Assembly (NCBI GenBank): GCA_964519535.1
Contig: CAZFIR010000092.1
Coordinates: 1-34,261, forward strand
Direction: 5' to 3'
DNA: 34,261 nt
Source: an uncultured Thermodesulfobacteriota bacterium
GTDB lineage: Bacteria > Desulfobacterota > B13-G15 > RBG-16-54-18
A model generated the notes under the pieces. That model was given only the letters and a program-made list of their open reading frames with translations, had not been told where the DNA came from and did not search any database. This document shows positions 1 through 18,887 of this stretch, in pieces. Made by a program: the position numbers and the translations under genes. Within the stretch, counting starts at the first letter, position 1. Every line of letters begins with the position of its first letter.

Positions 1-289
1 CCAGGTGGGTTGACTTTCCCAAGGGGCCGATGATATCGAGGAAGGCATCTCCCTCCTGAAAGGTGCGCATCAGGGCCGTGGTCTTCCCCACGACCTGGAA
101 GATGATATCGATGGTCCCTCGCGTTGCATCGGTCCCGGCCATCGTGAGGGGTATCCTCTCGCCGGTCTCATTGGGCCTGAGCACTATAAACTGTCCTGGC
201 TTGGCCTTTTTGGCGATAAGGGGGGCCTCAATCTTGAAGTGACAGACGGTATTTTCCGCCATTTCCCGCTTCTCTAATATCTTAAACAA
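1..289 (-). CDS. nfnA: Sulfide/dihydroorotate dehydrogenase-like FAD/NAD-binding protein (NfnA/SudB family), 5' part; runs off the window edge
   Basis: Hand translation from TTG at 289 (GAGGAGG RBS upstream): MFKILEKREMAENTVCHFKIEAPLIAKKAKPGQFIVLRPNETGERIPLTMAGTDATRGTIDIIFQVVGKTT...IIGPLGK. PGQF, ERIPLT, VVGKTT and GPLG are typical NfnA/SudB motifs. Confidence 0.85.
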   Translation of the reverse strand, partial: MFKILEKREMAENTVCHFKIEAPLIAKKAKPGQFIVLRPNETGERIPLTMAGTDATRGTIDIIFQVVGKTTALMRTFQEGDAFLDIIGPLGKSTHL

Positions 290-322
290 GGTTCCTCCTC
301 CCTATACCTGATTCTCTTTGCT

Positions 323-340
323 TTGTGTGAAGTATCACAA
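323..340. promoter_or_regulatory. Putative Rex-like operator upstream of the nfnA-like gene
   Basis: TTGTGTGAAGTATCACAA: 18-bp TTGTG-N8-CACAA palindrome 34 bp upstream of the start codon. Confidence 0.45.
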
Positions 341-354
341 AATTCCGCCCTCTG

Positions 355-948
355 TCAAGGTTCCGATGGGTCGATAAGATGAAGAATCTCCTGCCACAGC
401 CGCTTTTTCCCCTCCCCTGTTTGTGAAGAGAAGGGGCCGATCTGGTCCGGATTGACGGAAAGGGCCCTGGCTGTTTGATACAGGGCCTTGGTGACCTTGT
501 TCTTAGAGAGTTTATCGGATTTGGTCAGGATGAATATGCTGTGATGCGAGAGGGCCTTGAGCCAGGCGATGAGGGAGATATCCAAGGGGGTAGGGCCCAA
601 CCGCGCGTCAATGATGACCACCACCCCACAGAGGTTTACTCTGCTTCTACAGTACTGTTCTATGAGGGGGCTCCATTTTTTGCGCACCTTTTTGGGGATC
701 TTGGCATATCCATATCCGGGCAGGTCCACCAGGCAGAAGGAGCCATTCACCAGGTAGAAGTTGATGGATTGGGTCTTTCCCGGGGCAGCGCTGGTTCGGG
801 CCAAACCCTTACGGTTTACCAGGGTGTTTATGAGGGAGGATTTCCCCACGTTTGACCTCCCTGCGAAGGCCACTTCCGGGTAGCTGCCTGAAGGAAAACC
901 GTCTGTGGGATAGACGCTCTTGATTAAGTCAGCGCTCGTGATCTTCAT
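355..948 (-). CDS. engB: Ribosome biogenesis GTP-binding protein YihA/YsxC (EngB)
   Basis: GRSNVGKS (G1), PGKT (G2), DLPGYG (G3), TKSD (G4). Likely true start is ATG at 948 (MKITSADLIKS) with a GGAG RBS, not the 1131 ORF start. Confidence 0.93.
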   Translation of the reverse strand: MKITSADLIKSVYPTDGFPSGSYPEVAFAGRSNVGKSSLINTLVNRKGLARTSAAPGKTQSINFYLVNGSFCLVDLPGYGYAKIPKKVRKKWSPLIEQYCRSRVNLCGVVVIIDARLGPTPLDISLIAWLKALSHHSIFILTKSDKLSKNKVTKALYQTARALSVNPDQIGPFSSQTGEGKKRLWQEILHLIDPSEP

Positions 949-963
949 GCCCGCTCCAGGGGT

Positions 964-992
964 GTTATACCAAATCCAGGAGGGGATGGCAA
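964..992 (-). promoter_or_regulatory. Sigma70-type promoter for engB
   Basis: Minus strand TTGCCA-17 bp-TATAAC with extended -10 TG, just upstream of the 948 start. Confidence 0.5.
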
Positions 993-1080
993 AGATTTTG
1001 CAAGATATTATTCTCAGAAAGGCGTTCATAAGTTCCAAAAAGCTTGACGTTTTGCACAATGAAGAAGTAATATGTAGGGT

Positions 1081-2244
1081 ATGTTGCCCATCAAGAATAT
1101 AAGGAGGATTATTGCCAAGGCCTCTCAGCAACCGACGTATGCCCTGCGGGCGGGCCGGATGCGCCTCTTGTCAAACTTGAGCTATCGCTTTCTAAGGGGT
1201 CGAAGCACGCCTCCTGAGACCGTCTCCCTGTTGCTCACCTATCAGTGCAATCTCAGATGCCAGATGTGTGGGCAGTGGGGCGAGCGGGGGAGCTTAAAAG
1301 ACCGCCCCCTTAGCGAGACCAAGGTCTATATGGATATTTCTATCATAGAAAGGCTCATCGGCGAGATCAAGGGCTTTCACCCAACCATTACCCTCTTTGG
1401 GGGAGAACCCTTGCTCCATCCCCAGTGGAAGGAGATCGTAACGCGGATCAAAAGGTCAGGCCTTCGCTGCAACATGATCAGCAACGGCATCCTGCTCAAA
1501 AAAAGGGCCGAGGACGCGGTCCAGTTGGATTTGGATGAAATCATTTTCTCCCTGGACGGTCCCTCCGGGGTGCATGATGCCATTCGGGGAGGGAAGGGTG
1601 TATTCAACAGGGCGTTGGAGGGTTTTCAATACCTCGCGGAGGTGAAGAAGAGATATGGGAAAAAGAGGCCGCGAGTGAATGTCAACACGGTTATCTGGGA
1701 GGAGAACCACACGATACTGGGTGATATCGTGGAGCAGGCGGGTCGTTTCGGGGCTCAAACAATCACCTTTCATCACCTCATCTTTGCCGACCAAGAGGCC
1801 TTTGATGAGACAGAGCGGATCACGCAGGCAGCCCTCAACTGCAATTCCCCTGATTGGGCCGGGTTCATCATGGATGAGCTGCCACGGATAGATCCAGAGC
1901 AGATCATTATGCAGAAACAGTTGATCGAACAGGAGAAAAACTCAGTGCCGGCCTTCTTCTATCCCAATTTCACCGATGAGGAGATCAGGGCGTACTATAC
2001 CTCTTTTAACTTCCTTCCGTCTTCGTATAAGCGGAGGTGTCTCAGTCCTTGGATGGTGGCCTACGTGCTCCCGGATGGATCGGTCAAGCCCTGTCTTAGT
2101 CTGGGTTATGAGATGGGAAACCTGAAGGAGGACAGTTTTCAGGAGATATGGAACGGAGACCGGGTGGTACGGTTTCGCCGTCTCCTCAAGGAAAGAGGCT
2201 ATTTCCCGGTCTGTCCCCGATGCACGGAGTTTAGTAGATTTTAG
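1081..2244 (+). CDS. Radical SAM protein with C-terminal SPASM/Twitch domain
   Basis: CNLRCQMC (CxxxCxxC), GGEP, SLDG; C-terminal CLSPW...DGSVKPC...GNL...IWNG...CPRC. Confidence 0.9.
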   Translation: MLPIKNIRRIIAKASQQPTYALRAGRMRLLSNLSYRFLRGRSTPPETVSLLLTYQCNLRCQMCGQWGERGSLKDRPLSETKVYMDISIIERLIGEIKGFHPTITLFGGEPLLHPQWKEIVTRIKRSGLRCNMISNGILLKKRAEDAVQLDLDEIIFSLDGPSGVHDAIRGGKGVFNRALEGFQYLAEVKKRYGKKRPRVNVNTVIWEENHTILGDIVEQAGRFGAQTITFHHLIFADQEAFDETERITQAALNCNSPDWAGFIMDELPRIDPEQIIMQKQLIEQEKNSVPAFFYPNFTDEEIRAYYTSFNFLPSSYKRRCLSPWMVAYVLPDGSVKPCLSLGYEMGNLKEDSFQEIWNGDRVVRFRRLLKERGYFPVCPRCTEFSRF

Positions 2245-2299
2245 GTTATTTGATCGTGGTTATCACAACATGACATGAGTGTCGGTTTTTGAATTTAAA

Positions 2300-3472
2300 T
2301 CATCGGTGTTGTGCGGTACAGTCCCGATGTCGTTCTCTTCCCTTCTGTCCGGGCATTATGAGGGATAATAAAATATCTTTGACGTTCTCGGTTTTATGTG
2401 GATGATACAGTCTGTCGGCCCATTCCAACCGATTCATCAACTCTCGGCCAATCTCATGTCCCAACAATTGTTCTTTGTATGTGGTGAAAGAAAAATCTTT
2501 GCTCTTGAGCGCGTGCGCTATGGAGTCGGCTGCTACATGCCCATACCCTAAGCTGAATGAGATCCCCTCACCCCACAAGGGATCAACCCCTGCGGCATCA
2601 CCGACCAGGAGCACCCTGTTGGCCGAGAAGATCGATGCGGGATGAAACCACCTAATTGGCCATCGCTCAATCCGACCTTCATTTAGTGAAATACCCTGCG
2701 CTGCCAAAAACTCGGCGATGATCTTTTTCAGGAGAGGGCCGTCCTTTTGCGAGGTGGAAAAACCGCCCACACCCGTGTTCAGCCATGTTTGGCCATGGAT
2801 TGCCACGGGGAAGGACCAGACATAACCTCGAATCCCATGCCGAAATGTACAAGAGAAATCAATGACTGCTTCCTGCTCTCTCTGTTCAGAAGGGTTCAGA
2901 CTGTCGGCACGCGTCATAAAACGCAGCGTCATGCCAGTGTTCCTTGGGCCCCGTTGCCCAGCGTTTTGGTAAAGCTTTCTGCGTATGATGCTTTGCGCAC
3001 CATCGGCGCCTACTAAAACCCGTGTAGTGAGACTGCGATTGGGAGTTTGCGCAACAATTGCTTCATCGCTGTATGAAAAGGAGATCACGGCCTCGTTCTG
3101 GGCAACTGCAACGCCCAGATCCATTGCTGTGCGGACTAACGTCTCATCAAATTCTTCTCTGATTACCGTCCGCAATCCGCCCCCATCAAGGCAATATTCC
3201 ACATAGCCGTCATCATCAAGGGCGATGCGTGTCCTTTGAACAGTCAAGGATGCTATCGTCATCTTGATGCCAAGGTGCTGTAACCAGTAGTCAGTATATG
3301 CACCAATTCCTCCCCCGCAGATTTTCTTTCGGGGATGGGTTTCTTTTTCCAGTACTATCAGACGATCGCATATTGACGGGAGGAGCTTAGTCAGATGTAT
3401 GGCCGTCGAGATACCGGCAGGTCCGGAACCGACGACGATGCAGTCATATTCTGTTTCTCTCGAGCTGCCCAT
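2300..3472 (-). CDS. FAD-dependent oxidoreductase, geranylgeranyl reductase family
   Basis: GSGPAG Rossmann motif, PRKKICGGGI, GADG, LVGDAAG-DPLWGEGI. Confidence 0.85.
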   Translation of the reverse strand: MGSSRETEYDCIVVGSGPAGISTAIHLTKLLPSICDRLIVLEKETHPRKKICGGGIGAYTDYWLQHLGIKMTIASLTVQRTRIALDDDGYVEYCLDGGGLRTVIREEFDETLVRTAMDLGVAVAQNEAVISFSYSDEAIVAQTPNRSLTTRVLVGADGAQSIIRRKLYQNAGQRGPRNTGMTLRFMTRADSLNPSEQREQEAVIDFSCTFRHGIRGYVWSFPVAIHGQTWLNTGVGGFSTSQKDGPLLKKIIAEFLAAQGISLNEGRIERWPIRWFHPASIFSANRVLLVGDAAGVDPLWGEGISFSLGYGHVAADSIAHALKSKDFSFTTYKEQLLGHEIGRELMNRLEWADRLYHPHKTENVKDILLSLIMPGQKGRERHRDCTAQHR

Positions 3473-3571
3473 AATTCAGTGCACCGTTTTCAGGAGATTT
3501 GCGACCAATGGTACTGGAATAGTCGGATTGTATAATCATGACCTCAGTAGGACAAATTTTAGATATGAGTT

Positions 3572-4471
3572 TCACGAATGTGAGGTCTCTTTGCCAACCT
3601 CCCAAGCCCTTGATGTTAAGGCGTAATGTAGGCTGATATTCTCTATGTCCTTTGCAATTATTTCATCTTCTACAAGGCAAAGGGCGACAGAGATGGGGTT
3701 TAGCTGATATGATTGGCTCAAGATATAATTCAAGATTTGTACGTGGCTGTAGGCCAGGCTAAGCCGACGGTTATTCAGGAGGCGAACAAATCTGGTAGGG
3801 CGTTGCGGATTAAAATGTAATAGACGTCTTCCATCGCCCTCAAAGGAGATATGGAGTAGGTTGGACCCCTCGATAAATACCTGCACCGCATCTCGAAGTT
3901 TGAGCTTGCCCATGAGTGCGGTATTGTTGAAGTCCAGACGGTCAAGGAAAGGATATATCTCTATACTAGTTCTTCCATCGAAATACATATCAATCCCAAA
4001 CGGAAATTCCTCATGGACCAGATAATCGCGGATGCCATCCAGGGGTGGATGTAGCAAGAGGGCCTGATCTATCTTTTCAGGGCATTCCCTGACGATAAGA
4101 TAACACTTGACCTTCGAATCATTCGTGTTCGTTTTATAATCCAGACCTAGGCCTATTGCTACCACCCCTGAGAAGTCGCGGCCATTGTCAGTGATTTGAG
4201 ACAGCATACTATGGTTTAAACGTACGTTTTTACACCGTGAAATTTCGTGGAGAAAATCGTATATTTTTAGAAGGCCTTCTTGGATATCTTGTTGTTCATA
4301 TCCCAACCTGAGCCTTCCCGCATGGATACCTTGGGGGGAGATCTTAACTGAGCATTCCAGTATAGAACAGGGGGGTGTAGATAATAATGCTTCGAACAGC
4401 TGAAAAAAAGTATTATCCTCTAATCCGTACTCTTTTTTATGGAAATCATAGACGAGGATTAATGGGTTCAT
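3572..4471 (-). CDS. LynF/TruF/PatF family peptide prenyltransferase
   Basis: ~300 aa with the motif order recalled for cyanobactin F-proteins: H...LF, ILECSVKI...AGRL, DFSGV..GLGLDYK..DSKVK, PEKIDQAL, GIDMYFDGRTSIEIYP. Recognised by eye. Confidence 0.8.
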   Translation of the reverse strand: MNPLILVYDFHKKEYGLEDNTFFQLFEALLSTPPCSILECSVKISPQGIHAGRLRLGYEQQDIQEGLLKIYDFLHEISRCKNVRLNHSMLSQITDNGRDFSGVVAIGLGLDYKTNTNDSKVKCYLIVRECPEKIDQALLLHPPLDGIRDYLVHEEFPFGIDMYFDGRTSIEIYPFLDRLDFNNTALMGKLKLRDAVQVFIEGSNLLHISFEGDGRRLLHFNPQRPTRFVRLLNNRRLSLAYSHVQILNYILSQSYQLNPISVALCLVEDEIIAKDIENISLHYALTSRAWEVGKETSHS

Positions 4472-4575
4472 GCAGGGGTTATCTCGGTTGCTACATATAT
4501 CAGGAGGAGATGATCCTTCTTGTTGCAGAGCTGAGGCACTTGTCTATTTCATGTCCTCACTCAAGCAACAAAAAT

Positions 4576-4740
4576 CTAGGAAATCTGAGAGGTTGAACAA
4601 GTGGTATTCCAAATCGTCTGACAGTTGTTAGTATACGCACCGCCTCTGGTACTTGATTTGCACAGCTGGAGGATCGCTTCCTCTGCCCTCCCCTTAAACA
4701 ACACGATCAACTTGGGTTTCGTCCAGCGCTTGTTTTTCAT
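4576..4740 (-). CDS. Putative RiPP precursor peptide A (54 aa)
   Basis: Hand translation: MKNKRWTKPKLIVLFKGRAEEAILQLCKSSTRGGAYTNNCQTIWNTTCSTSQIS*. GGAGG RBS; paralog at 5138-5299; lies in an RRE/rSAM cluster. Confidence 0.88.
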   Translation of the reverse strand: MKNKRWTKPKLIVLFKGRAEEAILQLCKSSTRGGAYTNNCQTIWNTTCSTSQIS

Positions 4741-4815
4741 CGTTTATATCCTCCGTCTTTTTTATACTATGAACTGATCGCTTATTGTTGTAGCCAACAA
4801 ACATCTATCTCGTTG

Positions 4816-4843
4816 ATTATATCATATTTTTTATTACATGCAA
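4816..4843 (-). promoter_or_regulatory. Sigma70-type promoter of precursor A
   Basis: Minus strand TTGCAT-16 bp-TATAAT with extended -10 (TGA-TATAAT). Confidence 0.6.
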
Positions 4844-4889
4844 TTTTTTGCCCCAGTTTTTGGAAATCATTATGCCTTGGATTGGGTCC

Positions 4890-5010
4890 CCTATCAAAGA
4901 TTCTGAAGTAGCAAGGGCCCCTCGTTTCTTTATGGGTGTCAGCCCTGGCGTGAGCAGCCTGGCAGAATGAGGTAACCGCTCCAGGTATCTGGAGGGCAGG
5001 ATGAGCGAGC
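4890..5010 (-). pseudogene. Degenerate duplicated 3' end of the radical SAM gene at 5458-6600
   Basis: Translation AHPALQIPGAVTSFCQAAHARADTHKETRGP aligns with the rSAM C-terminus AHASLETGEMDAPIIYFCRVAHARAEALKTAKGP. Confidence 0.7.
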
Positions 5011-5137
5011 TTGTTGCTCAGTTGATGCACTTGTCTATTCCAGGCCCCAACTTGTCCTGCTCCTTGAATTTAAAGTCTAAGGAAAGCAGCCGGAGGTGGC
5101 CCTTTGGCCAGATGTCGCGAAGCGACACAGTAAAAAT

Positions 5138-5299
5138 CTAGGAAGCAGTCTGAGTAGAACATGGTCGACTACCATGCCTACAAGGGTCTTGTTTTGGGCC
5201 AGATACGCCCTGCCACTTACACGACAGAAGTACCGCTTCCTCCGGCCTTCCCTTAAACAACGCTACTAATTTGGGTTTTGTCCAGCGCTTGGTCTTCAT
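5138..5299 (-). CDS. Putative RiPP precursor peptide B (53 aa)
   Basis: Hand translation: MKTKRWTKPKLVALFKGRPEEAVLLSCKWQGVSGPKQDPCRHGSRPCSTQTAS*. GGAGG RBS; leader nearly identical to precursor A. Confidence 0.88.
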   Translation of the reverse strand: MKTKRWTKPKLVALFKGRPEEAVLLSCKWQGVSGPKQDPCRHGSRPCSTQTAS

Positions 5300-5374
5300 C
5301 TTTTTTAATGGCCTCCGTCTTTGATACTATGAACTGATTACTTTTCTGTAGCACTAAGACATCCCATTGTTGTA

Positions 5375-5403
5375 ATTATAGCATATTTTTATCTGCATGA
5401 TAA
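5375..5403 (-). promoter_or_regulatory. Extended -10 promoter of precursor B
   Basis: Minus strand TGC-TATAAT, with TTATCA 17 bp upstream of the -10; same position relative to the ATG as in copy A. Confidence 0.55.
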
Positions 5404-5457
5404 GCAACATTTGGCCCATATTTTTGGGAAGCACTATGCTTTGGGAATAACCCTATG

Positions 5458-6600
5458 TCAGCGCTCCCGAGTCAGCAAGGGGCCTTTTGCTGTCTTAAGT
5501 GCTTCAGCCCTGGCATGGGCGACCCGGCAGAAATAGATAATTGGCGCATCCATTTCCCCGGTCTCAAGTGAGGCGTGGGCAGGGCACCACATACAGAGAT
5601 TGATCAAAGGACATACCCGACACGTCTTTAGAAACTCGTCTCTTTCCGATTGCATTGCCCGCACCTGGGGGATAAAGCATTGCCAGGCATCGGTGAGGGT
5701 CCCTTGTTTCAGGTCATAGACACAATCGGGGTGCCAGACGGATGAGCAGAGGCGAAAAAGGCCGTCGTAGCTGAGGCTGAAACTATCGCTTCCTGCACCG
5801 CAATGGAAGAGGTGGTTACATGTTGTATGGGAAAATTGTTGGTCAATGAGTTTGTCACACCCTTTTTCCAGGGCCTGAAACCGCTCTGGATCAGACTGTT
5901 CCAAGGCTACGATTTCTTCGGGAGAGAGCCTTTCGGCCTTAATCTCAGCATTTCTTACAGGGTTCCCGTCATATCTCAGGTGTAGAAACGGATCAAAGCG
6001 GAAGTAGTCCTTTGTTCTTTCTCTGCAGAAGCGGGCAATCGCCGGCTGTTCATGGAGATTGGAACGCAGGGCCATGGCCTTAAGACGCACGTTCAGCCCG
6101 CTTTTCATGAGGAGCTTGAGTCCTCGACGAAAGGCTGCAAAAGAGCCTGCCTTGCGAGTTACCCCCTCATAGGATTCCTTGCTGCATCCGTAGACCGAGA
6201 CCTCGATATCCCTCGGTGGATACTCCTTGAATAGTTTGATATGCTCTTTTGTTACCAGGGTGGCATTGGTAAAAACCGAGATCAAAAGCCCCTTCTTCTT
6301 GAGGTAGAGATAGATATCGGGGAAATCATCCCTCAGGAGGGGCTCACCTCCGGTGATCAGGCACCACAAGGCGCCGAGGGATACGGCCTCCGTTCCTATT
6401 CCTTGTATCTCTTGCAGAGAGAATTCCTTTTCTTTTGCCTCTTTATCCGCAGCCGGAAGGTTGATGTAACAGTGGCGGCAGTTGTTGTTGCACCGGGCGG
6501 TAATCTCCAGGTCAAAGGAGATGAGCGCTCTTTTCTCTCGCATCTTCTTCCAGAGGGGAAGGTCATGTAAGGCAGCGGATGAAACATACGATTCACTCAC
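5458..6600 (-). CDS. Radical SAM/SPASM peptide maturase (paralog 2)
   Basis: CNNNCRHC, TGGEP; SPASM Cx17C...Cx2Cx5Cx2Cx18C. Confidence 0.9.
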   Translation of the reverse strand: MSESYVSSAALHDLPLWKKMREKRALISFDLEITARCNNNCRHCYINLPAADKEAKEKEFSLQEIQGIGTEAVSLGALWCLITGGEPLLRDDFPDIYLYLKKKGLLISVFTNATLVTKEHIKLFKEYPPRDIEVSVYGCSKESYEGVTRKAGSFAAFRRGLKLLMKSGLNVRLKAMALRSNLHEQPAIARFCRERTKDYFRFDPFLHLRYDGNPVRNAEIKAERLSPEEIVALEQSDPERFQALEKGCDKLIDQQFSHTTCNHLFHCGAGSDSFSLSYDGLFRLCSSVWHPDCVYDLKQGTLTDAWQCFIPQVRAMQSERDEFLKTCRVCPLINLCMWCPAHASLETGEMDAPIIYFCRVAHARAEALKTAKGPLLTRER

Positions 6601-7156
6601 CGGGCCGACTCCTCATAAAAAAACGCACAAAACGCCAGACGGGGTTTAGTAGGGGTAAAAGCCCTTTGCGAATCACGAAGGCTATGATAAAACGATCCGG
6701 GCCGAGGCCGAGAGAGATGTATTTTCCGTTTCTCTCCACCTTAGTCACACGTCCCAAGATTGCTGCCCTGGAGATTAAGCCGTCTCCCTCTGGAGCATTA
6801 TCCCCCTTGGTGAGGTAAGAGCCAGCCTTTTTCCCTATTATTCGATGGATGATGAGCTTGCCGGTATGGGGATGCGTGAAGACCACCACATCACCAAAAC
6901 CGGGGGCAGATGTCTGTACGGGGGTAATGGTGAGGACATCGCCATCCTTGATAAAGGGGGACATACTGAAACCCTTGCCTTGAAACCTGAAGCACGCCCC
7001 CTTACTCAGCACACCTCGCATGAGTTTTTCGAGATGTTGGCTGGGGAGAGATAGTTCCTTTCCTCTCTTAATAACAAGGGCTGGTTTCTCCTGAGCGTCG
7101 TGCAAGGTATGTGATGACGGAGTGTTCATAGTATTTAACACATAACCTAACGGCAC
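6593..7156 (-). CDS. S24/S26 family peptidase (signal peptidase I-like, Ser/His type); start uncertain
   Basis: GFSMSPFIKDGD...GDVVVF...IIHRI...TKGDN..D...ILGRV; no obvious N-terminal transmembrane helix. Confidence 0.8.
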   Translation of the reverse strand: MPLGYVLNTMNTPSSHTLHDAQEKPALVIKRGKELSLPSQHLEKLMRGVLSKGACFRFQGKGFSMSPFIKDGDVLTITPVQTSAPGFGDVVVFTHPHTGKLIIHRIIGKKAGSYLTKGDNAPEGDGLISRAAILGRVTKVERNGKYISLGLGPDRFIIAFVIRKGLLPLLNPVWRFVRFFMRSRPGE

Positions 7157-7171
7157 ATAAAGAACGGGTTA

Positions 7172-7480
7172 TTACGAAGAGGCTTCAACGATCATCTTCC
7201 TCTTGAGGAGTTCTTCTGCAAGCCCGATGACATCCTTCTCGATCTCGTCGGGCGGCGCCTCATATTCTGCAGAGAGCTCGTCTGCTACCGCCTTCAAGCT
7301 CTTTTTGCCGTCCAGCTTTGCCCAGATGGCCCTTCCGGTTTCATTCAGGGTAAAGAGTTCGTCCTCCATATCCCCCATGCCGGCAACCAGGGGGACGATG
7401 ATGAGTTCTCCCTCAATCTCCCGGCACACCAGGTCCGCCGACGGGCAATAGGCGGCATCAAAGTTGACCTTTGTTTTCAT
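7172..7480 (-). CDS. Stand-alone PqqD family protein (RiPP recognition element)
   Basis: 102 aa, REIEGELIIVP...LFTLNETGRAIWAKLDG...L...Y....IEKDV...L; GGAGG RBS. Confidence 0.92.
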   Translation of the reverse strand: MKTKVNFDAAYCPSADLVCREIEGELIIVPLVAGMGDMEDELFTLNETGRAIWAKLDGKKSLKAVADELSAEYEAPPDEIEKDVIGLAEELLKRKMIVEASS

Positions 7481-7529
7481 AAAGACCTCCTTACATAGTT
7501 ATCGTATGGCTCGAGACCAAATCACCTTT

Positions 7530-8333
7530 TCATGCAGACAGAGGTGAATCAGAAGGGGTCTTCCTTAGCACTGTCCCTCCTATCAATATCTCTTCCGCGA
7601 TGCGGAGGTGTATCACCTCAAATCCACCCTCTGCAAATTCCGACTTGACCTCATCCTCTTGTGAGAAGGCGTGGATGAACTCTATATTGTTTGAGAGCGT
7701 ATCACCCTTTTCATACCAGAGATTACCCAATGTGAAGAAGGCAACGACCTTTCTGACAAGCTCCCATAGATGTGCAGGTCCATCCTTTGTAGCCCAGCGG
7801 AACTGGCATATGAAATATCCCCCAGGTTTAAGGGCCTTGCCGATCCTCTGGAGCATCTCTACACGCCTGCCCCTGGTGGGGACGCAGGAATACATGGCTG
7901 CAGAGAGCCAGGCGACGTCGTAGGCCTCCGCAGGCACGTCAATCTTGGAGATTTCCTGAACAAGCCCTTCCATCTTCACCCCGTGGCGGCCAGCATTCTC
8001 CTTGGCCTTCTCGACCAGCGCGGGGACAAAGTCAACACCCGTTACCGCAAAGCCCATCTGTGTCAAGGGAATGGCCTCCCTTCCACCTCCCACACCGAGG
8101 AGGAGGAGTCTGCCTCCTGTTAGGTGAAGCCTCGCCAGAAGAGCTTGCTCATCGGGATGCAGGATCGGGTACGCCAGGTCTTGACGGCCACAGTCCTCCA
8201 CCATCTTCTCTCTTGCATAGGTTTGCCGACTGAACTCCACCAAATCATTGGGCCTCATCACCACAACGGCCAGAGACTGTATAAAACGACCAAAACGAAT
8301 CAGAAAACGTCCGAAGAGGATCCTCGGTCTCAT
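7530..8333 (-). CDS. Class I SAM-dependent methyltransferase
   Basis: LLLGVGGGRE motif I variant, VTGVDF, LKPGG. Confidence 0.85.
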   Translation of the reverse strand: MRPRILFGRFLIRFGRFIQSLAVVVMRPNDLVEFSRQTYAREKMVEDCGRQDLAYPILHPDEQALLARLHLTGGRLLLLGVGGGREAIPLTQMGFAVTGVDFVPALVEKAKENAGRHGVKMEGLVQEISKIDVPAEAYDVAWLSAAMYSCVPTRGRRVEMLQRIGKALKPGGYFICQFRWATKDGPAHLWELVRKVVAFFTLGNLWYEKGDTLSNNIEFIHAFSQEDEVKSEFAEGGFEVIHLRIAEEILIGGTVLRKTPSDSPLSA

Positions 8334-8377
8334 GGTTTCACTTTGATTTCCTGCTTTTTTTCATTGCGGCTTAGATA

Positions 8378-9613
8378 TCAACTCTTCGTGTAAGACCTGG
8401 CTACCGCATGGCTTGTCTTCGGGCTGGCAAGCTTGCCATCTGAAAAGTTTTGTATCCTTTCTTCCCAATCATCTATCTGCCAGGCTCGCTCGCCTTCGTC
8501 AAGCAACCCCAGGGCCCGCGCCTGCGCGTGCGCGATCTCGCAGTGATACTCTACCCGGGTATCCAGCGTTCCATGTTCCATCCATGACCGGGCTGGGCAC
8601 TGTTCGCAGAGGCCCTGCAAAAAACAGTGGGCACAGCGGGTGAGGTAGTCGTGGTTGTCGGTCTGTATCTTTCTTATCCTCGGAAAAAAATTTATCAGGG
8701 CATCTTTGAGCGAGCCTCTTTTTAGATCGTACACTGTGTCTGGGTGCCTCAGCAGCATGCACAACTGTAGATGTCCATAGGCATCCACGCATCCGCTCCT
8801 TACCCCTGCTCCACAGGAGAAGATGTTGCTCCCCGAGGGCCTGGTAAACTGAGAGCAGAACTCCCGCATCTCTTTCAGATATTCTTCGCGACGCCTGAAA
8901 AAGAATGCTACTGCCTCATCAGGTGAGAGTCTGAGCTTCTTAATAGAAATATTCTTTTGCCGGGAGTCGCGGCGAGCGCGAAGATCAAAAAAAATGGAGT
9001 AGGAAGTCACTGTATCCATCCAGGGGATGGTGGAGGCCCACGATTCAAACTCCTCTGTTTCTTCTCTGTTTGGTGGAAGAAGCGCGCCTTTGACCACAAA
9101 AGGAACCTTTTTCTCTAACAGCAAATGTATCCCTCGCCAGGCCGCTTCGAAAGAACCCGAAACCCTGGTAACAGACTCATAGGAACTCCTTTTCATCCCA
9201 TAGAGGGTGACCTCGATAGGCTGAAGAAGCGGGATGCGTGTAAATACCTTGGAGAGGGCGGGAGTGATCAACGTGGCGTTGGTAAGAAGGATCACGCGCA
9301 GGCCGAGTTTTCGGGTAAAGATGTAGAGGTCTTCAAAATCTTTTCTCAAGAGAGGTTCACCTCCCGTGAACCTCACTGTCAGACAGCCTAAGGAAGCAGC
9401 TTCTTGCAGAATCTCCTGTATCTCCTTTGTCGAGAGTTCCCGTTGTTGGGCATTAAGATCTGCCGCAGGCAGATTGATATAGCAGTGGATGCAGTTGTTG
9501 TTGCAGCGTTCAGTTAGCTCCATGTCAAGCGAGTCGAGAGCGGAAGCGTTACCTCTCCGCGGGGAGACCTCATCGGCCCTTATTTTAACGGCATAAGAAT
9601 CTTGATTGCCCAT
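8378..9613 (-). CDS. Radical SAM/SPASM peptide maturase (paralog 1)
   Basis: CNNNCIHC, TGGEP; SPASM CGAG...C...CAHC-x5-CEQC-x18-C; clear paralog of 5458-6600. Confidence 0.9.
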   Translation of the reverse strand: MGNQDSYAVKIRADEVSPRRGNASALDSLDMELTERCNNNCIHCYINLPAADLNAQQRELSTKEIQEILQEAASLGCLTVRFTGGEPLLRKDFEDLYIFTRKLGLRVILLTNATLITPALSKVFTRIPLLQPIEVTLYGMKRSSYESVTRVSGSFEAAWRGIHLLLEKKVPFVVKGALLPPNREETEEFESWASTIPWMDTVTSYSIFFDLRARRDSRQKNISIKKLRLSPDEAVAFFFRRREEYLKEMREFCSQFTRPSGSNIFSCGAGVRSGCVDAYGHLQLCMLLRHPDTVYDLKRGSLKDALINFFPRIRKIQTDNHDYLTRCAHCFLQGLCEQCPARSWMEHGTLDTRVEYHCEIAHAQARALGLLDEGERAWQIDDWEERIQNFSDGKLASPKTSHAVARSYTKS

Positions 9614-9664: not shown

Positions 9665-10672
9665 TTACAGGTGCCTTAAAAGGTCTATGACGTCGCCATC
9701 TTTAGTAAAGTGGAGGAAATAACAGGGGACTTCATGGGCAATCCGGTCCACCAAGGCAAGCATCTGCTCCCACCAATCGGCCGTGCCCAGGGGTTTTATC
9801 AGGCAGGCCAGGAGCATTCCGATGATCTCTTGCTTGTGATCAAGGGGCATGAGACGGTTTTCCCTGTCCTGCTTCAGAAAAAGAATGGCCTTTAATGGGG
9901 CGGCGTCTGCCGAAACATCAGGGACATCACCGTGACTCCAGGTCCCGTGGATTTTGAAGCCCTTTGGCCATCGTCTGACAATTATTCGGTCATCGCACAG
10001 GACCTTTGCTTTATCCTGCAACATCATTACCATGGTGGACTTGCCTGCATCCGAATGACCGACGAAGAGTATGCCCTTGCCGTCAAGCACCACGCCGCTG
10101 GCATGGATATAACAGCCCTCCCTGTCGGCAAGAACCCTGGCAAGGAGGATCTGGTCGGTGGGAAAGAGGGTGAGGGAGTGGAGGTTGCCCTTGCGAAAGG
10201 CCCTTTCCGTTTTGTTGTAAACCTTGATATCGCTATAGTCATGGTTAAATACCGCGAGTTGGTGGATGTTGCTTTCTATAACAGAGCCTGAAGGGGAAGA
10301 TCCCATTTGTTTTGATTTTTGGCGAGACCTTTGATATAAGCGGTGCCGTATTCTGGGCCACAGACGATTAATCGCGCCCCCCACATCCCCTGAAATCCCG
10401 GCGTAGAACCAGGAAGCCCCCTTTTTGTAAATGGCCCAAGGGGGCTTGCGATAGACCTCTTTTCCTATATCCCAATTGCGTAGATCCGGTATGGAGAAGT
10501 GATGTCTGATGGTAATGGTATCCTTCCCCGGTCTATTCACCTCGAAGTGTTTAAACTTGGGATGGAAGGTGGTATCTGTTATGGGCAAATCCGCTTCCAG
10601 TCTGATGGTGATACCGGCAATGTGATAGTAGCGGTGGTCCAATGCCTGAGTTTTTTCCGCCATCCTTTGCAT
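9665..10672 (-). CDS. HprK-related P-loop kinase-like protein
   Basis: IHASGVVLDGKGILFVGHSDAGKST...VLCDD: His, Walker A and DD arrangement typical of HPr kinase-like domains. Confidence 0.72.
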   Translation of the reverse strand: MQRMAEKTQALDHRYYHIAGITIRLEADLPITDTTFHPKFKHFEVNRPGKDTITIRHHFSIPDLRNWDIGKEVYRKPPWAIYKKGASWFYAGISGDVGGAINRLWPRIRHRLYQRSRQKSKQMGSSPSGSVIESNIHQLAVFNHDYSDIKVYNKTERAFRKGNLHSLTLFPTDQILLARVLADREGCYIHASGVVLDGKGILFVGHSDAGKSTMVMMLQDKAKVLCDDRIIVRRWPKGFKIHGTWSHGDVPDVSADAAPLKAILFLKQDRENRLMPLDHKQEIIGMLLACLIKPLGTADWWEQMLALVDRIAHEVPCYFLHFTKDGDVIDLLRHL

Positions 10673-10836: not shown

Positions 10837-11667
10837 TCACGCAAGGGCATCCTTCAGGAGCTTAAGGCACTTCTTCAATCTATCGCCGATAATCTTGAGG
10901 GAGATGCCCTGCGGGAAGAATATTTCATTCAAGGCCGCGCTCTTTTTTTTCGACTGGAAAAGAAAGAGGAGGTCGCCGAAGTTCTGATTGGACTTTCCCC
11001 CCTTGATCCTCTTCAGAATCCATCGCTCTCCAAAGGAGAGGTTTCCATTCCAGGATGGGAAGAGGTCCGAGCGTAGGAAGCTGAGATAATACAGTGTCCG
11101 CTCCGCCCCCATCTTTTTGGCCTCGGAGAGTATTGCCTCGTCGGAGAGCCCATAGTATTCTTTTATCCGCTTCAGATCCTCCCATCCCATCTGAGAGCCG
11201 AAGGAGTGGCTCTGGAGGTGGATAGCGGTGGAGATGAAGAGGTGTGTGGGGCAGGGTATCTTGACCTCCATGCCTTCCAGTTTTATGGTGATGCTCCTTT
11301 CAAAGACATCCTTGACGGAAATCGTGAGACAGGAGCGTTCAAGGATGGTGCGGGAAGGATTGAGGAAGGAGGTGTGTAGGTCGAGGAGAAGGCCTGGCTT
11401 ATCGAAGACCCCCGGCTCTATCTCCTCAAACCCCATCCCTTTCAAGCCCTTTTTGAGCAGTGCAATATCCCTTTCCCGGACCAAGACGTCCACGTCGAGC
11501 ATTCCCCGATCCCCCAGAGAGGGGTAGACATCGCCGAGGAGGCTTACCCCTCTGAAAAAGAGGACCTCAGGTCCTTTCTTTTTCAGGCCCTCGATTACTT
11601 CTTTGAGGTGGTGGATGGTGATGAGATTTTGGGAGGCCGTTGCATAAAAAGAGATTGCCCTTTTCAT
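10837..11667 (-). CDS. Nucleotidyltransferase family protein (NTP_transf_5-like)
   Basis: FRGVSL..VYP..GDRGMLDVDVLV...LDLH...HLQSHSF; start ATG at 11667 overlaps the GT4 stop (ATGA). Confidence 0.8.
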   Translation of the reverse strand: MKRAISFYATASQNLITIHHLKEVIEGLKKKGPEVLFFRGVSLLGDVYPSLGDRGMLDVDVLVRERDIALLKKGLKGMGFEEIEPGVFDKPGLLLDLHTSFLNPSRTILERSCLTISVKDVFERSITIKLEGMEVKIPCPTHLFISTAIHLQSHSFGSQMGWEDLKRIKEYYGLSDEAILSEAKKMGAERTLYYLSFLRSDLFPSWNGNLSFGERWILKRIKGGKSNQNFGDLLFLFQSKKKSAALNEIFFPQGISLKIIGDRLKKCLKLLKDALA

Positions 11668-12791
11668 CTGGTGTTTTCTACGACTTGATGGTAGATATCG
11701 AGGGTTTTCTGAAGGCATACGTTCCAGTCGAAGAGGGTCTCAACCCGCCTTCTGCCTTTTTTCCCTATCTGTTTCCTGAGATCGGGCGCATTGATGAGCC
11801 GGATAGTTTCCTGCGCAAGAGCTTTTGTATCTTCGGGCTTTACCAGGATGCCTCCCTCACCCACCACCTCGGGCAGCCCCCCTACAGACGTTGCAATGAC
11901 GGGCTTGGCAGAGGCCATGGCCTCTACAGCGGCTAGGTTGAACCCGTCATTGAGGGATGGAATGATAAGGAGATCAAGGGCGGCGATGACATCGGGGATG
12001 TCCTTACGGTGGCCCACAAAGTGAAAATGAGGTAGCCCCTGTGTTTTTTTGATCAACTCCTCTTTCATGGGGCCATCCCCTGCCATGATGAAGTGGGTCT
12101 GGGGAAGGGTGCGCCCTATGCTCATGACCGCCTCGACAAAGAGGTGAGGTCCTTTTACCTCCTCCAATCTCCCCACAAAGCCCACGAGAGGAACCTGCCT
12201 TTTTATCTGTAATTCATTCCTTACCTTTTTTTCATCGCCAGGAAACCGTTGCAGATTTATTCCATTAAAAATGGTGACCACCTTTTTCGCGTCGCCGATT
12301 CCCCTCTTCAGGTATTCACGGCGTTCGTCTTCGGAGATGGTGATGATCCTGGCACAGAATCGGGCAACCAGTTGCTCGAGCAAGACGTAGAATCGCTCTT
12401 TTCCCTTTTCGAAATATCCGTAAAAGAGGTGGCCGTGGGGGGTATGTATCGTCCTGGTGCGGGTCACTCCCCCTGCCACCCTCCCCAATACCCCCGCCTT
12501 GGTGGTATGGGTATGCAGGAGTGTTGGTCTCTCTCGGCGGATGAGGGCAATGATCTCGAAGAAGGCAAGGAGATCATGCACAGGAGCGATATCGCGGCGC
12601 AGATGGGGTAGGGGATGATAGGGTATGTGAAATCTCCGGGAGAACTGTTGTGGGTCTTCCTCGGGCTGGCGGGAGGGTCCAGAGGCCATGACGATATCGA
12701 CCCCCTGTTGCTTGAGGCCTTTGAGCAGTTTTAGAAATATCCAGGGTGCCCCGCCCTGATCCAATCTAGTTATCAGGTGTAGGACCTTCAC
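11664..12791 (-). CDS. Glycosyltransferase family 4
   Basis: VLHLITRLDQGGA, LHTHTTKAG, GRLEEVKG, DGFNLAAVEAMA. Confidence 0.9.
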   Translation of the reverse strand: MKVLHLITRLDQGGAPWIFLKLLKGLKQQGVDIVMASGPSRQPEEDPQQFSRRFHIPYHPLPHLRRDIAPVHDLLAFFEIIALIRRERPTLLHTHTTKAGVLGRVAGGVTRTRTIHTPHGHLFYGYFEKGKERFYVLLEQLVARFCARIITISEDERREYLKRGIGDAKKVVTIFNGINLQRFPGDEKKVRNELQIKRQVPLVGFVGRLEEVKGPHLFVEAVMSIGRTLPQTHFIMAGDGPMKEELIKKTQGLPHFHFVGHRKDIPDVIAALDLLIIPSLNDGFNLAAVEAMASAKPVIATSVGGLPEVVGEGGILVKPEDTKALAQETIRLINAPDLRKQIGKKGRRRVETLFDWNVCLQKTLDIYHQVVENTR

Positions 12792-17147: not shown

Positions 17148-18887
17148 ATGTTAGAATATGAGAAATACTGGCACTTTCTGGATTTGCCATTTAAGGTCTT
17201 CCCTTCGGGAGATACCTATTTTCCCTCCTCGACCCATGAAGAGGCCAGGGCGAGGATATTTCAAGCCATACGGACCCGCAAGAGGATCATCTTGATTACG
17301 GGCAAGCCGGGTTCAGGGAAGACCACCCTCTGGAAGAGGATCAAGGGGGATCTTGAAAAAAACAATATCCCCTTTGCCATGGGTGTCGCGGAAAACCCCA
17401 TGGGCAATTTCTCCGAGATCATGAGGGACATGGGTGAGAGCATGGGTCTTCCCACCTCCCGTGATGGCGGAGAGCTCTTAGGGGCCCTCAGGGATAAACT
17501 CAGCGCTAACGTCGAGAAGGGGGCCACCAATATATGGCTGATAGATGAATGCCAGGTGATAAAGGATCCGAACATCTGGGAAAGGTTCAGGTTGTTGACC
17601 AACTGGTCATTGAATGGCTCTCCGGCCTTGACCCTCTTTCTCTTGGGCCAGCCGGAGGTCATACCTATCCTTCGTGAGAAGGAGGGGTTTTCCCAGAGGA
17701 TAGGGGCCTTCTATGTCCTCGGCGCTCTCAGCTTGGAGGAGACAGGGGCGTATATCGAGTATCACCTCAAAAAGGTGAACGCTGCGGATCAGAACATCTT
17801 CACCGAGGATGCACTGCATAAGATATATCAATTGTCAGGGGGACTTCCGCGCAACATAAACCATATTTGTGACGCTGCCCTTCTGCTCGGTGCGATCCGG
17901 GGGAAAGAGTTTGTCGATGCGAGGATGGTGGAGTCAGTTGCTGCGGAACGGGCGTCCATCAGCGGTGAGCAAGAGGTCTTGTGGACGCCGATGCGGGAGG
18001 GACTTATGGCAACCAATGAGCAAGTGGGTGCGCATAATAATATATATGAGAAATTAATTAAGACATTCGACAAATTTTATTACATAAAAAAGGGGCAGAG
18101 CCCCATAGATCTGGTGGAGAAGGAGCTCCAACCGATTGTGCCTCAATTTATAAGGGCCGTGAAGACGGACAGGGGGCTCATGAAAAAGGCCTTGTACGGT
18201 GAAGAGCCCGATGTCTACCTTTTGCAACACTGCGTGAATGTGGCGGTTCAGGGGGTGAAGATAGGAATGGGGATGGGTTACAGCGAGGATGAATTGAAGC
18301 AATTATCCCTGGCGGCCCTGATTCACGATATAGGGATGGGGGATGTCCCGGAGGAGATATGGACCAAGAAGGGATCTCTCTCACACTCCGAAAGCGATGA
18401 GATGCGGAGGCATCCCCTGTATGGCTACGAGCGCCTCAAATCCTTAGATGAGATCGCAAAGGTGGTGTTACAGGAACATGAGAGGATGGACTGCTCAGGC
18501 TATCCTAATGGCCCGTTATGCGGAGATATTCATGAGTTCTCTTACATCATCGGCGTCGCTGATATATATGACAGCCTCCTCCATACCCGTCCCTATCGGG
18601 ACAAACGGTACTCCTCCTATGAGGCGATCAAAGAGATCGTGACGAAGGAAAAGCAGAGATTCCCTGCCAGCGTGCTCAAGTCTTTGGTCGCCTACTTTCT
18701 CTTTCCGGTGGGGAGCCACGTGGAGTTGAACAGCCGGGAGCAGGCCGAGGTGATTGACGAGAACAGGGCAAACCCGATGCGCCCTGTAGTGAAGATTACC
18801 CACGACAAAGATAATCGGCAATACAAAAAACCCAGAGTTATAGACCTGGACAGGGATCAAAAATTCTTTATCACGAGGAATCTCTGA
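17148..18887 (+). CDS. ExeA-like AAA ATPase fused to an HD-GYP domain
   Basis: N-term: GKPGSGKT, IDECQ, LLGQPE, SGGLPRNINHICD. C-term: HCVNVA, IHDIG, HPLYG, EHERMDCSGYP, VADIYD, RPYR. Confidence 0.88.
   Translation: MLEYEKYWHFLDLPFKVFPSGDTYFPSSTHEEARARIFQAIRTRKRIILITGKPGSGKTTLWKRIKGDLEKNNIPFAMGVAENPMGNFSEIMRDMGESMGLPTSRDGGELLGALRDKLSANVEKGATNIWLIDECQVIKDPNIWERFRLLTNWSLNGSPALTLFLLGQPEVIPILREKEGFSQRIGAFYVLGALSLEETGAYIEYHLKKVNAADQNIFTEDALHKIYQLSGGLPRNINHICDAALLLGAIRGKEFVDARMVESVAAERASISGEQEVLWTPMREGLMATNEQVGAHNNIYEKLIKTFDKFYYIKKGQSPIDLVEKELQPIVPQFIRAVKTDRGLMKKALYGEEPDVYLLQHCVNVAVQGVKIGMGMGYSEDELKQLSLAALIHDIGMGDVPEEIWTKKGSLSHSESDEMRRHPLYGYERLKSLDEIAKVVLQEHERMDCSGYPNGPLCGDIHEFSYIIGVADIYDSLLHTRPYRDKRYSSYEAIKEIVTKEKQRFPASVLKSLVAYFLFPVGSHVELNSREQAEVIDENRANPMRPVVKITHDKDNRQYKKPRVIDLDRDQKFFITRNL

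Follow-up and report, generated by a model that had tools for sequence, protein, structure and literature searches.

Paired putative precursor-peptide genes of a large unnamed family, linked to radical SAM enzymes in an uncultured Thermodesulfobacteriota bacterium

A contig of an uncultured Thermodesulfobacteriota bacterium (CAZFIR010000092.1, positions 1–34,261; this whole stretch of 34,261 nucleotides is referred to as the window) carries two short paralogous genes, preA and preB, on its minus strand between positions 4576 and 5299. These probably encode translated precursors of a large, functionally undescribed family of ribosomally synthesised peptides with post-translational modifications (RiPPs), matured by radical S-adenosylmethionine (rSAM) enzymes along the route proposed below. 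We read the product as a rSAM-modified RiPP whose leader, chaperone and kinase parts are common to it and to phosphorylated lasso peptides. preA (4576–4740) encodes 54 residues (P0001), with a leader of residues 1–26, a core beginning at an invariant C27-K28 and a C-terminal C-x5-S, and preB (5138–5299) encodes 53 residues (P0002) with a basic core. Both open reading frames (ORFs), with their near-identical leaders and three-cysteine cores, had been picked out in an initial annotation made from the DNA letters alone, and both are present on the minus strand. They were described there as unannotated, which is right as to function but not as to the genes themselves, since P0001 and relatives of it are already called ‘hypothetical protein’ in public gene sets.

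The precursor genes and their family

The two peptides are 51% identical by pairwise alignment, with the first 24 residues almost identical. Shared leader residues are M1, K2, K4, R5, W6, T7, K8, P9, K10, L11, L14, F15, K16, G17, R18, E20, E21, A22 and L24, the cores share C27, K28, G34, C40, C48, S49, T50 and S54, and both products end in serine. Cysteines are spaced C-x12-C-x7-C in preA and C-x12-C-x6-C in preB; the alignment confirms the shared core residues and the spacing that had first been noted by inspection.

Relatives of the pair are numerous. A search of 5.8 billion proteins returned 14 further metagenome peptides of 53–58 residues which match the pair at E values of 9e-29 to 1.6e-15, and a scan of public genomes, with one genome per species, detected 33 loci. 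Seven of these are in metagenome-assembled genomes (MAGs) of Deltaproteobacteria/Thermodesulfobacteriota with full-length matches (delta-type loci), one is in a ‘Proteobacteria’ MAG, and 25 are in Aminicenantes/Acidobacteriota-type MAGs (some otherwise labelled) which encode a 60-residue variant. A family profile of 45 sequences from the two phyla was searched against 1.84 billion cluster representatives (clusters at 50% identity), giving 2,793 matches at E ≤ 0.001 and 147 at E ≤ 1e-10, nearly all of them 50–70 residues long. Neither window peptide matched Pfam or NCBIfam at E ≤ 0.1, and none of the 45 profile members scanned reached the cut-off of any family in either database. The 30 nearest clusters in the ESM Atlas are all ‘hypothetical protein’ with no common Pfam family, which is a lead only. 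The family is therefore very large and unnamed, absent from Pfam and NCBIfam, and spans at least two bacterial phyla; no description of it or of its system was found in the searchable literature, which leaves aside subscription journals and supplements. All carriers found so far are MAGs of uncultured anaerobes.

The ratio of nonsynonymous to synonymous substitution rates (dN/dS; pairwise Nei-Gojobori) was determined in the proposed frame of 24 Aminicenantes-type 60-residue genes. The leader gave 0.050 and the core 0.160, at dS values of about 0.8–1.0, the leader being the more conserved part. For the leaders of 15 delta-type genes it was 0.106. Frames shifted by one or two bases on the same DNA gave 1.6–5.3, and purifying selection is found in the proposed frame only. 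Furthermore, a GGAGG precedes 21 of the 25 Aminicenantes-type precursor genes, and ribosome-binding sites of the same sequence lie on the minus strand at 4750–4754, 9 nt before the ATG of preA, and at 5312–5316, 12 nt before that of preB. preA and preB are thus real genes.

The geometry of leader and core was counted in the best 151 profile matches, 142 of which are no longer than 90 residues, and the two window peptides were added where n = 144. W-x-x-P-x-(aliphatic) and C-K are present in 142/142 short representatives, the distance from W to C-K is exactly 21 residues in 140/144, and exactly six residues follow the last cysteine in 121/144. Of the 142, 113 end in Ser and 25 in Thr, and the core contains three cysteines in 65 of them and four in 62. 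An alignment of the two phyla leaves M1, K4, W6, P9, L11, L14, G17, E20, E21, L24, C27, K28, C40 and C48 invariant. The core is built as C-K, usually G-P, a second cysteine after 12–16 residues, a last cysteine, five residues and S/T, and asparagine and aspartate are the commonest residues just before the second cysteine (N 33 and D 11 at −1, N 32 and D 18 at −2, of about 144). With spacings fixed in this way, the core is a scaffold and not free-form. The cores had been called variable, and they do differ, but C-K, G-P, two or three further cysteines and C-x5-S/T are kept. The constant C-x5-S/T end points to a ring, or else a recognition unit, whose size is fixed. Cleavage near E-E-A-(I/V)-L had been inferred in the initial annotation, and the invariant C-K, two residues further on, would place the leader/core border between L24 and C27. 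Together, the 21-residue spacing from W to C-K, the C-x5-S/T end and the invariant lysine give testable predictions of where the enzymes act.

Several genomes encode two or three precursor paralogues with different cores. One profile member of 180 residues (P0018) consists of two precursor copies read as one frame, and on one contig (G148:C245, locus L084) three precursor genes are interleaved with PqqD.

Linkage to a radical SAM and PqqD cassette

Directly upstream of the pair, the minus strand of the window encodes an HPr-kinase/ScmC-like P-loop protein (9665–10672), which is the candidate kinase for the C-terminal serine, a second radical SAM/SPASM enzyme, rSAM2 (8378–9613), and a discrete PqqD-family protein (7172–7480; PF05402, 60.5 against a cut-off of 23.4), the candidate leader-binding chaperone or RiPP recognition element (RRE). 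These are followed by an S24/S26 (archaeal/ER-type signal-peptidase-like) peptidase (6593–7156; TIGR02228, 52.8 against 51.85), a candidate leader peptidase, and by the radical SAM enzyme rSAM1 (5458–6600). The two cassette rSAMs score 75.7 and 70.3 for PF04055 (cut-off 29.5). Both possess CxxxCxxC at residues 37–44 (C37/41/44 in rSAM1) together with the C-x12-G-x4-C and C-x2-C-x5-C-x2-C patterns of a SPASM domain at the C-terminal end; a Pfam SPASM match was obtained for rSAM0 only, a third radical SAM/SPASM enzyme encoded divergently on the plus strand (1081–2244), whose position is conserved in delta-type loci.

When the window's proteins were mapped onto the 33 loci, genes for the HPrK-like protein, rSAM2, PqqD, the S26 peptidase and rSAM1 were found directly upstream of the peptide gene, on the same strand and in the same order, in 26. 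In another six the contig stops at rSAM1 or before it. Among more distant loci of the same phylum, cassette genes occur around the precursor in 7/9. The proposal that the peptides are RiPP precursors of the adjacent PqqD and rSAM genes is borne out by this linkage, and looking for the family beside homologous rSAM pairs, as the initial annotation had advised, yielded rSAM2 and rSAM1 together in 26 of the 33 loci. In a sample of 401 genomes of the window's phylum, the profile matched 14 (one match is doubtful, lying inside a 574-residue frame), and nine of these 14 have a ScmC-like kinase match within 5 kb on the same contig.

The Aminicenantes loci delimit the system: the cassette, preceded by a third rSAM, stands there with the precursor as an island that has MurJ on one side and riboflavin/FtsY genes on the other. 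Those six or seven genes are therefore the core system. Four other genes of the window, all on the minus strand, are accessory and not core. They encode a PF14907 nucleotidyltransferase (10837–11718), a candidate for further decoration of a phosphorylated residue, a SAM-dependent methyltransferase (7530–8333; Pfam/NCBIfam matches and tblastn), a LynF/TruF/PatF-type (DUF5838) peptide prenyltransferase homologue (3572–4471; Pfam and PDB relatives) and a geranylgeranyl-reductase-family flavoprotein (2300–3472) which is always paired with the prenyltransferase. The latter two would be clade-specific tailoring genes, being present 3′ of the precursor in 7/7 delta-type loci and in 0/26 others; both also appear in one of the seven distant loci with cassette genes. 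By tblastn the methyltransferase was detected in 3/5 delta-type loci spanning the position (absent from L005 and L009), with a weak match in L081.

Proposed maturation, rival explanations and known systems

The family, the selection acting on it, its geometry and its cassette linkage are observed, and everything chemical in the following route is inferred. preA and preB would each be transcribed from their own promoter. The N-terminal 24–26 residues would serve as leader, their W-x-K-P-x-L ... G-R-P-E-E-x-V-L segment being held by PqqD. PqqD would hand the core on to the radical SAM/SPASM enzymes, two or three in number, which would most likely cross-link the three invariant cysteines, probably as thioethers. 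PqqD would also present the core to the HPr-kinase-like P-loop enzyme, which would phosphorylate the conserved C-terminal Ser/Thr six residues past the last cysteine, and the PF14907 nucleotidyltransferase may extend that phosphate. The S24/S26-type peptidase would release the leader by a cut immediately ahead of the invariant C-K. Within the clade of the window, the LynF-type prenyltransferase and the geranylgeranyl-reductase homologue would add and saturate an isoprenoid, and the methyltransferase may cap the product. The C-terminal Ser/Thr at a fixed distance, the HPr-kinase-like and nucleotidyltransferase genes, and the downstream prenyltransferase and reductase all go beyond what the initial annotation contained.

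That annotation had taken (Y/W)xxPxL to be the leader motif of lasso peptides and WTKPKL to be the stretch bound by PqqD. The first point agrees with PMC10368454, where YxxPxL is the conserved lasso leader motif, and with the W-x-x-P-x-L form that is invariant in our 142/142 representatives; the motif and a discrete PqqD protein would together fit an RRE model. For the second, complex prediction with alignments for both chains scored PqqD and the precursor at 0.43, against 0.01 for the best control, a result graded as weak support; scores of this class mislead more often than not when the pairing was not already likely. The runs agreed in at least 65% of contacts and the partner's predicted local distance difference test (pLDDT) was at least 48. 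The mark applied is reached by 58/80 solved complexes and 2/110 mismatched pairs, and scores of 0.60 or below include only 7 of the 80 solved complexes and both passing mismatches. Binding of the leader by the discrete PqqD protein is thus weakly supported, in silico.

In PMC10368454, a PqqD-like RRE strongly boosts the kinase of a lasso system, and in PMC8498205 HPr-kinase homologues of lasso clusters phosphorylate the C-terminal serine of the linear precursor, with a nucleotidyltransferase adding hexose to the phosphate. The kinase-like protein of the window has a Walker A loop which is invariant in 24 homologues, and the best solved folds for its model (pLDDT 82.9) are phosphoenolpyruvate (PEP) carboxykinases and HPr kinases (E 3e-7 to 2e-4). 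As the near-universal C-terminal Ser/Thr and the HPr-kinase-like gene recall phosphorylated lasso peptides, we propose that the same parts work here, combined with rSAM cross-linking of the invariant cysteines in place of lasso cyclisation.

The S24/S26 enzyme is the likely leader peptidase, as it is the only protease in the cassette. The prenyltransferase homologue scores 78.8 for Pfam DUF5838 (cut-off 28.8) and 106.6 for NCBIfam TIGR04445, below the cut-off of 140, and matches the solved peptide prenyltransferases FjoF, Fl3F, PirF, LimF and PagF at E values of 1e-26 to 3e-17 (best 1.2e-26). As it is constantly paired with the geranylgeranyl-reductase homologue, the isoprenoid may be partly saturated. 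When cores from loci that have a linked prenyltransferase were compared by eye with cores from loci that lack one, no discriminating residue emerged. Prenylation of RiPPs other than cyanobactins is known from PMC12715784; a literature search on the closest solved prenyltransferases returned only unrelated papers, and none on FjoF or Fl3F.

Several observations count against this route or parts of it. Besides the class of the PqqD complex score, the fold matches of the kinase-like protein have low template modelling (TM) scores of 0.2–0.5 and its sequence matches are weak (PF07475 17.1 against 33.3, ScmC 40.8 against 125, HPr kinase in the PDB at E 0.042). No characterised thioether-forming maturase model comes near its cut-off (StsB 66–78.5/625, AlbA 60.8/850, PapB 43–47/340). 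The small −1/−3 rule of signal peptidases is not obeyed by the residues that precede C-K, and neither a transporter nor an immunity gene was found in the cassette among the long window ORFs scanned. None of the four accessory genes (nucleotidyltransferase, prenyltransferase, reductase and methyltransferase) occurs in the Aminicenantes loci. Linkage also has exceptions. Two orphan peptide genes in one genome (L082 and L087) are without nearby cassette genes, and one of the 33 loci (L021) keeps only rSAM1, with the other four cassette genes absent. At this last locus (1–8750) the region upstream of rSAM1 shows no relation to its counterpart in the close relative L018; the two match only from rSAM1 onward, and no bases are masked. 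This would be either a rearrangement or a mis-assembly.

A more specific version of the same reading is tentative, and we hold it to be possible and no better than that: a phylum-spanning unnamed RiPP class in which parts of phosphorylated lasso peptides (leader, RRE, kinase and nucleotidyltransferase) are combined with a multiply rSAM-cross-linked C-K...C...C-x5-S/T core, in the window's clade prenylated with the isoprenoid reduced, giving a phospho(glyco)lipopeptide. If true, such a ribosomal phospho(glyco)lipopeptide would be made beside, and possibly work with, an envelope polysaccharide locus. The general logic of a short precursor, a PqqD-type chaperone and rSAM/SPASM enzymes is textbook knowledge. 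Beyond it, the window offers a first candidate for a cyanobactin-type prenyltransferase and a chain reductase acting in a rSAM RiPP pathway. It also suggests that a group of parts familiar from lasso systems, namely the RRE, the HPr-kinase-like protein and the nucleotidyltransferase, moves between RiPP classes as a set.

The strongest rival, which we regard as unlikely, accepts the precursors as real and denies that the cysteines are the rSAM targets. The rSAMs would act on Lys28 or on the Asn/Asp beside the second cysteine, or would epimerise. In one variant, phosphorylation of the Ser/Thr would be followed by elimination, and the last cysteine would close a lanthionine-like ring; in another, the cysteines would be prenylated, metal-binding or disulfide-bonded. 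It draws on the C-x5-S/T spacing fixed in 121/144 peptides, on K28 being as invariant as the cysteines, on N/D as the commonest residues at −1 and −2 of the second cysteine, and on the maturase models that stay far below cut-off. However, no lyase or cyclase domain to carry out elimination or ring closure was found among the cassette genes, and with three rSAM/SPASM enzymes and a core whose only invariant side chains are three cysteines and one lysine, cross-linking of the cysteines fits best. Cysteine cross-linking by rSAM/SPASM enzymes has its precedent in sactipeptides and ranthipeptides.

Less probable again is that the peptide serves as a sacrificial scaffold for a small cofactor or signal molecule, as PqqA does for pyrroloquinoline quinone (PQQ) and MftA for mycofactocin. 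The parts list is the same (a short peptide, a discrete PqqD, a PqqE-like rSAM/SPASM enzyme and a peptidase), the Aminicenantes cassette is single and stands among housekeeping genes with an almost unchanged core (dN/dS 0.16), and the cassette lacks an exporter or immunity gene. Against this, conservation extends across the whole 27–35-residue core with several fixed spacings and is not confined to one short motif, and two or three paralogues with different cores per genome are typical of peptide products. PQQ biosynthesis itself was rejected (TIGR02109 52.9 and 62.9 against 381, TIGR03859 38.8 against 46), as was mycofactocin (TIGR03962 60–66 against 265).

A divergent lasso-peptide cluster is very improbable, for all that it has in common with the window. 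Phosphorylated or phosphoglycosylated lasso clusters (paeninodin, pseudomycoidin and Bradymonas Bsf) share with it the aromatic-x-x-P-x-L leader motif and C-terminal serine, along with a nucleotidyltransferase and a stand-alone RRE of PqqD type, and they have an HPr-kinase homologue where the window has its HPr-kinase-like protein. Indeed, 12 of the 45 profile members match the paeninodin-type lasso precursor model below threshold (best E 0.026) and a few weakly match other lasso precursor models, the matches falling in the first 12–25 residues, which are the leader, with 11–15 bits against cut-offs of 27–33. However, neither an asparagine-synthetase-like cyclase nor a transglutaminase-like B2 protease was found in the 30 long window ORFs scanned or in ten scanned ORFs of an Aminicenantes locus (L018). 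In their place the window has two or three rSAM/SPASM enzymes and an S24/S26 peptidase, and its core is cysteine-based and starts with C-K. With cyclase and protease missing there and every precursor match below cut-off, the lasso assignment was rejected.

The weakest rival, that preA and preB are untranslated chance frames in a duplicated intergenic region, could appeal to the shortness of the ORFs and to the duplication of the flanking DNA but is effectively refuted by dN/dS of 0.05–0.16 in frame against more than 1.6 out of frame, by thousands of same-length relatives with invariant residues and by the conserved ribosome-binding sites.

The SynChlorMet (SCM) cassette has the same enzyme set, with an HPr-kinase-like ScmC, a PqqD-like ScmD and two rSAM/SPASM enzymes. 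ScmC is the best NCBIfam match of the window's kinase-like protein. The window's proteins are only about 21–37% identical to the SCM enzymes, though, and the gene order differs. Assignment to the SCM models (TIGR04248–04251) was rejected, the scores being 40.8/125 for ScmC, 30.2/100 for ScmD, 76.6 and 71.2/400 for ScmE and 66.9 and 78.9/400 for ScmF. The precursor profile found nothing within ~8 kb of eight true SCM loci (L049–L056; best E 0.73), and small ORFs upstream of the first rSAM in six SCM loci, inspected by eye, comprised only ScmD and no precursor candidate. No peptide is known to have been named as the SCM precursor, and a literature search for ‘SynChlorMet’ returned no paper. With the window's proteins as tblastn queries, the eight SCM loci of the same phylum contained an S24/S26 peptidase in four and a PF14907 nucleotidyltransferase in four. 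If the more specific reading given above is true, the precursor family may indicate what kind of substrate the long-orphan SCM-type cassettes have. ScmC was above cut-off in 17 of the 401 genomes of the phylum sample.

Sactipeptides, ranthipeptides and other rSAM-SPASM RiPPs that use a PqqD-type recognition element have in common with the window a short precursor with conserved leader and cysteine core beside SPASM rSAMs and a PqqD-type element. In contrast to these, the window encodes its candidate RRE on its own instead of as the N-terminal domain of a rSAM, there are two or three rSAMs per peptide, and a candidate kinase, nucleotidyltransferase and prenyltransferase are added, with no precursor or maturase model of these classes at cut-off. 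The gene at 3572–4471, through its DUF5838 match, resembles the cyanobactin-type (LynF/TruF/PatF, ABBA-fold) prenyltransferases, including those of prenylated lanthipeptides, but its setting is a rSAM RiPP cluster in a phylum of sulfate-reducer type, and its partner there is a geranylgeranyl-reductase homologue. Overall, the system would work like an RRE-dependent rSAM-SPASM RiPP with borrowed lasso-type kinase parts and a clade-specific cyanobactin-type prenyltransferase.

Duplication of the pair and surrounding DNA

The DNA units of preA and preB align over ~500 nt. Within this span both have a TATAAT, a TG upstream of it, a 15-nt stretch that is conserved between them, and GGAGG before the ATG. 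An extended −10-like box of preA (TG-n-TATAAT, 4816–4824, minus strand) aligns with that of preB and was not reported by the promoter scan because its −35 hexamer is poor. The promoter-like site of preB (5375–5403, minus strand) consists of TTATCA, 17 nt and TATAAT with TG (10/12 matches); the scan of the preA/preB region gave 3 sites, with 2.2 expected from shuffles, and the preB site is a consensus match only. An Rfam search of 4200–5800 detected nothing at E ≤ 1, and no terminators were found in 4300–5700. A conserved RNA element in the two 5′ untranslated regions was considered and dropped, their structures being different (z −0.99 and −2.80).

Between preB and preA lies an 82-residue ORF (4782–5030, minus strand) without Pfam or NCBIfam match, in which the final ~40 codons of rSAM1 survive as a decayed copy (14/38 identities, E 5e-6). 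What was duplicated is therefore the precursor gene together with its promoter and the 3′ end of rSAM1. The pair arose by this tandem duplication, and now carries different cores on the same scaffold. These were the only copies found in the window's own genome, where a third match (E = 0.25) contains a stop.

Contigs from four metagenome DNA runs were compared over 4300–5700. One contig of the X2 set spans the whole interval with two letters changed and may be the window's own source, and contigs of the X1 set cover it in three overlapping pieces; hence the tandem preA/preB layout is not peculiar to one assembly, although the runs may come from one campaign.

A small dispersed repeat (5056–5113) is inserted between preB and the rSAM1 remnant and is outside the RiPP system. 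It consists of two modules, has ~24 partial copies on other contigs of the same genome and appears as very deep, short contigs in the metagenome runs. In these respects it looks like a miniature repeat element.

Beyond the cassette, a large exopolysaccharide locus (11664–32027) encodes a WecA-like transferase, several GT4 glycosyltransferases, an aminotransferase, WbqC, PIG-L, and Wzz/Wzy/flippase-like proteins. In 5/5 delta-type loci that reach that far, the cassette has GT4 and the PF14907 gene beside it, and in 4/5 also WecA. A functional link between the exopolysaccharide locus and the cassette is possible. The plus-strand polysaccharide operon is headed by a gene (17148–18887) for a 579-residue protein with an AAA/STAND-like NTPase N-terminus and an HD_5 phosphohydrolase domain.

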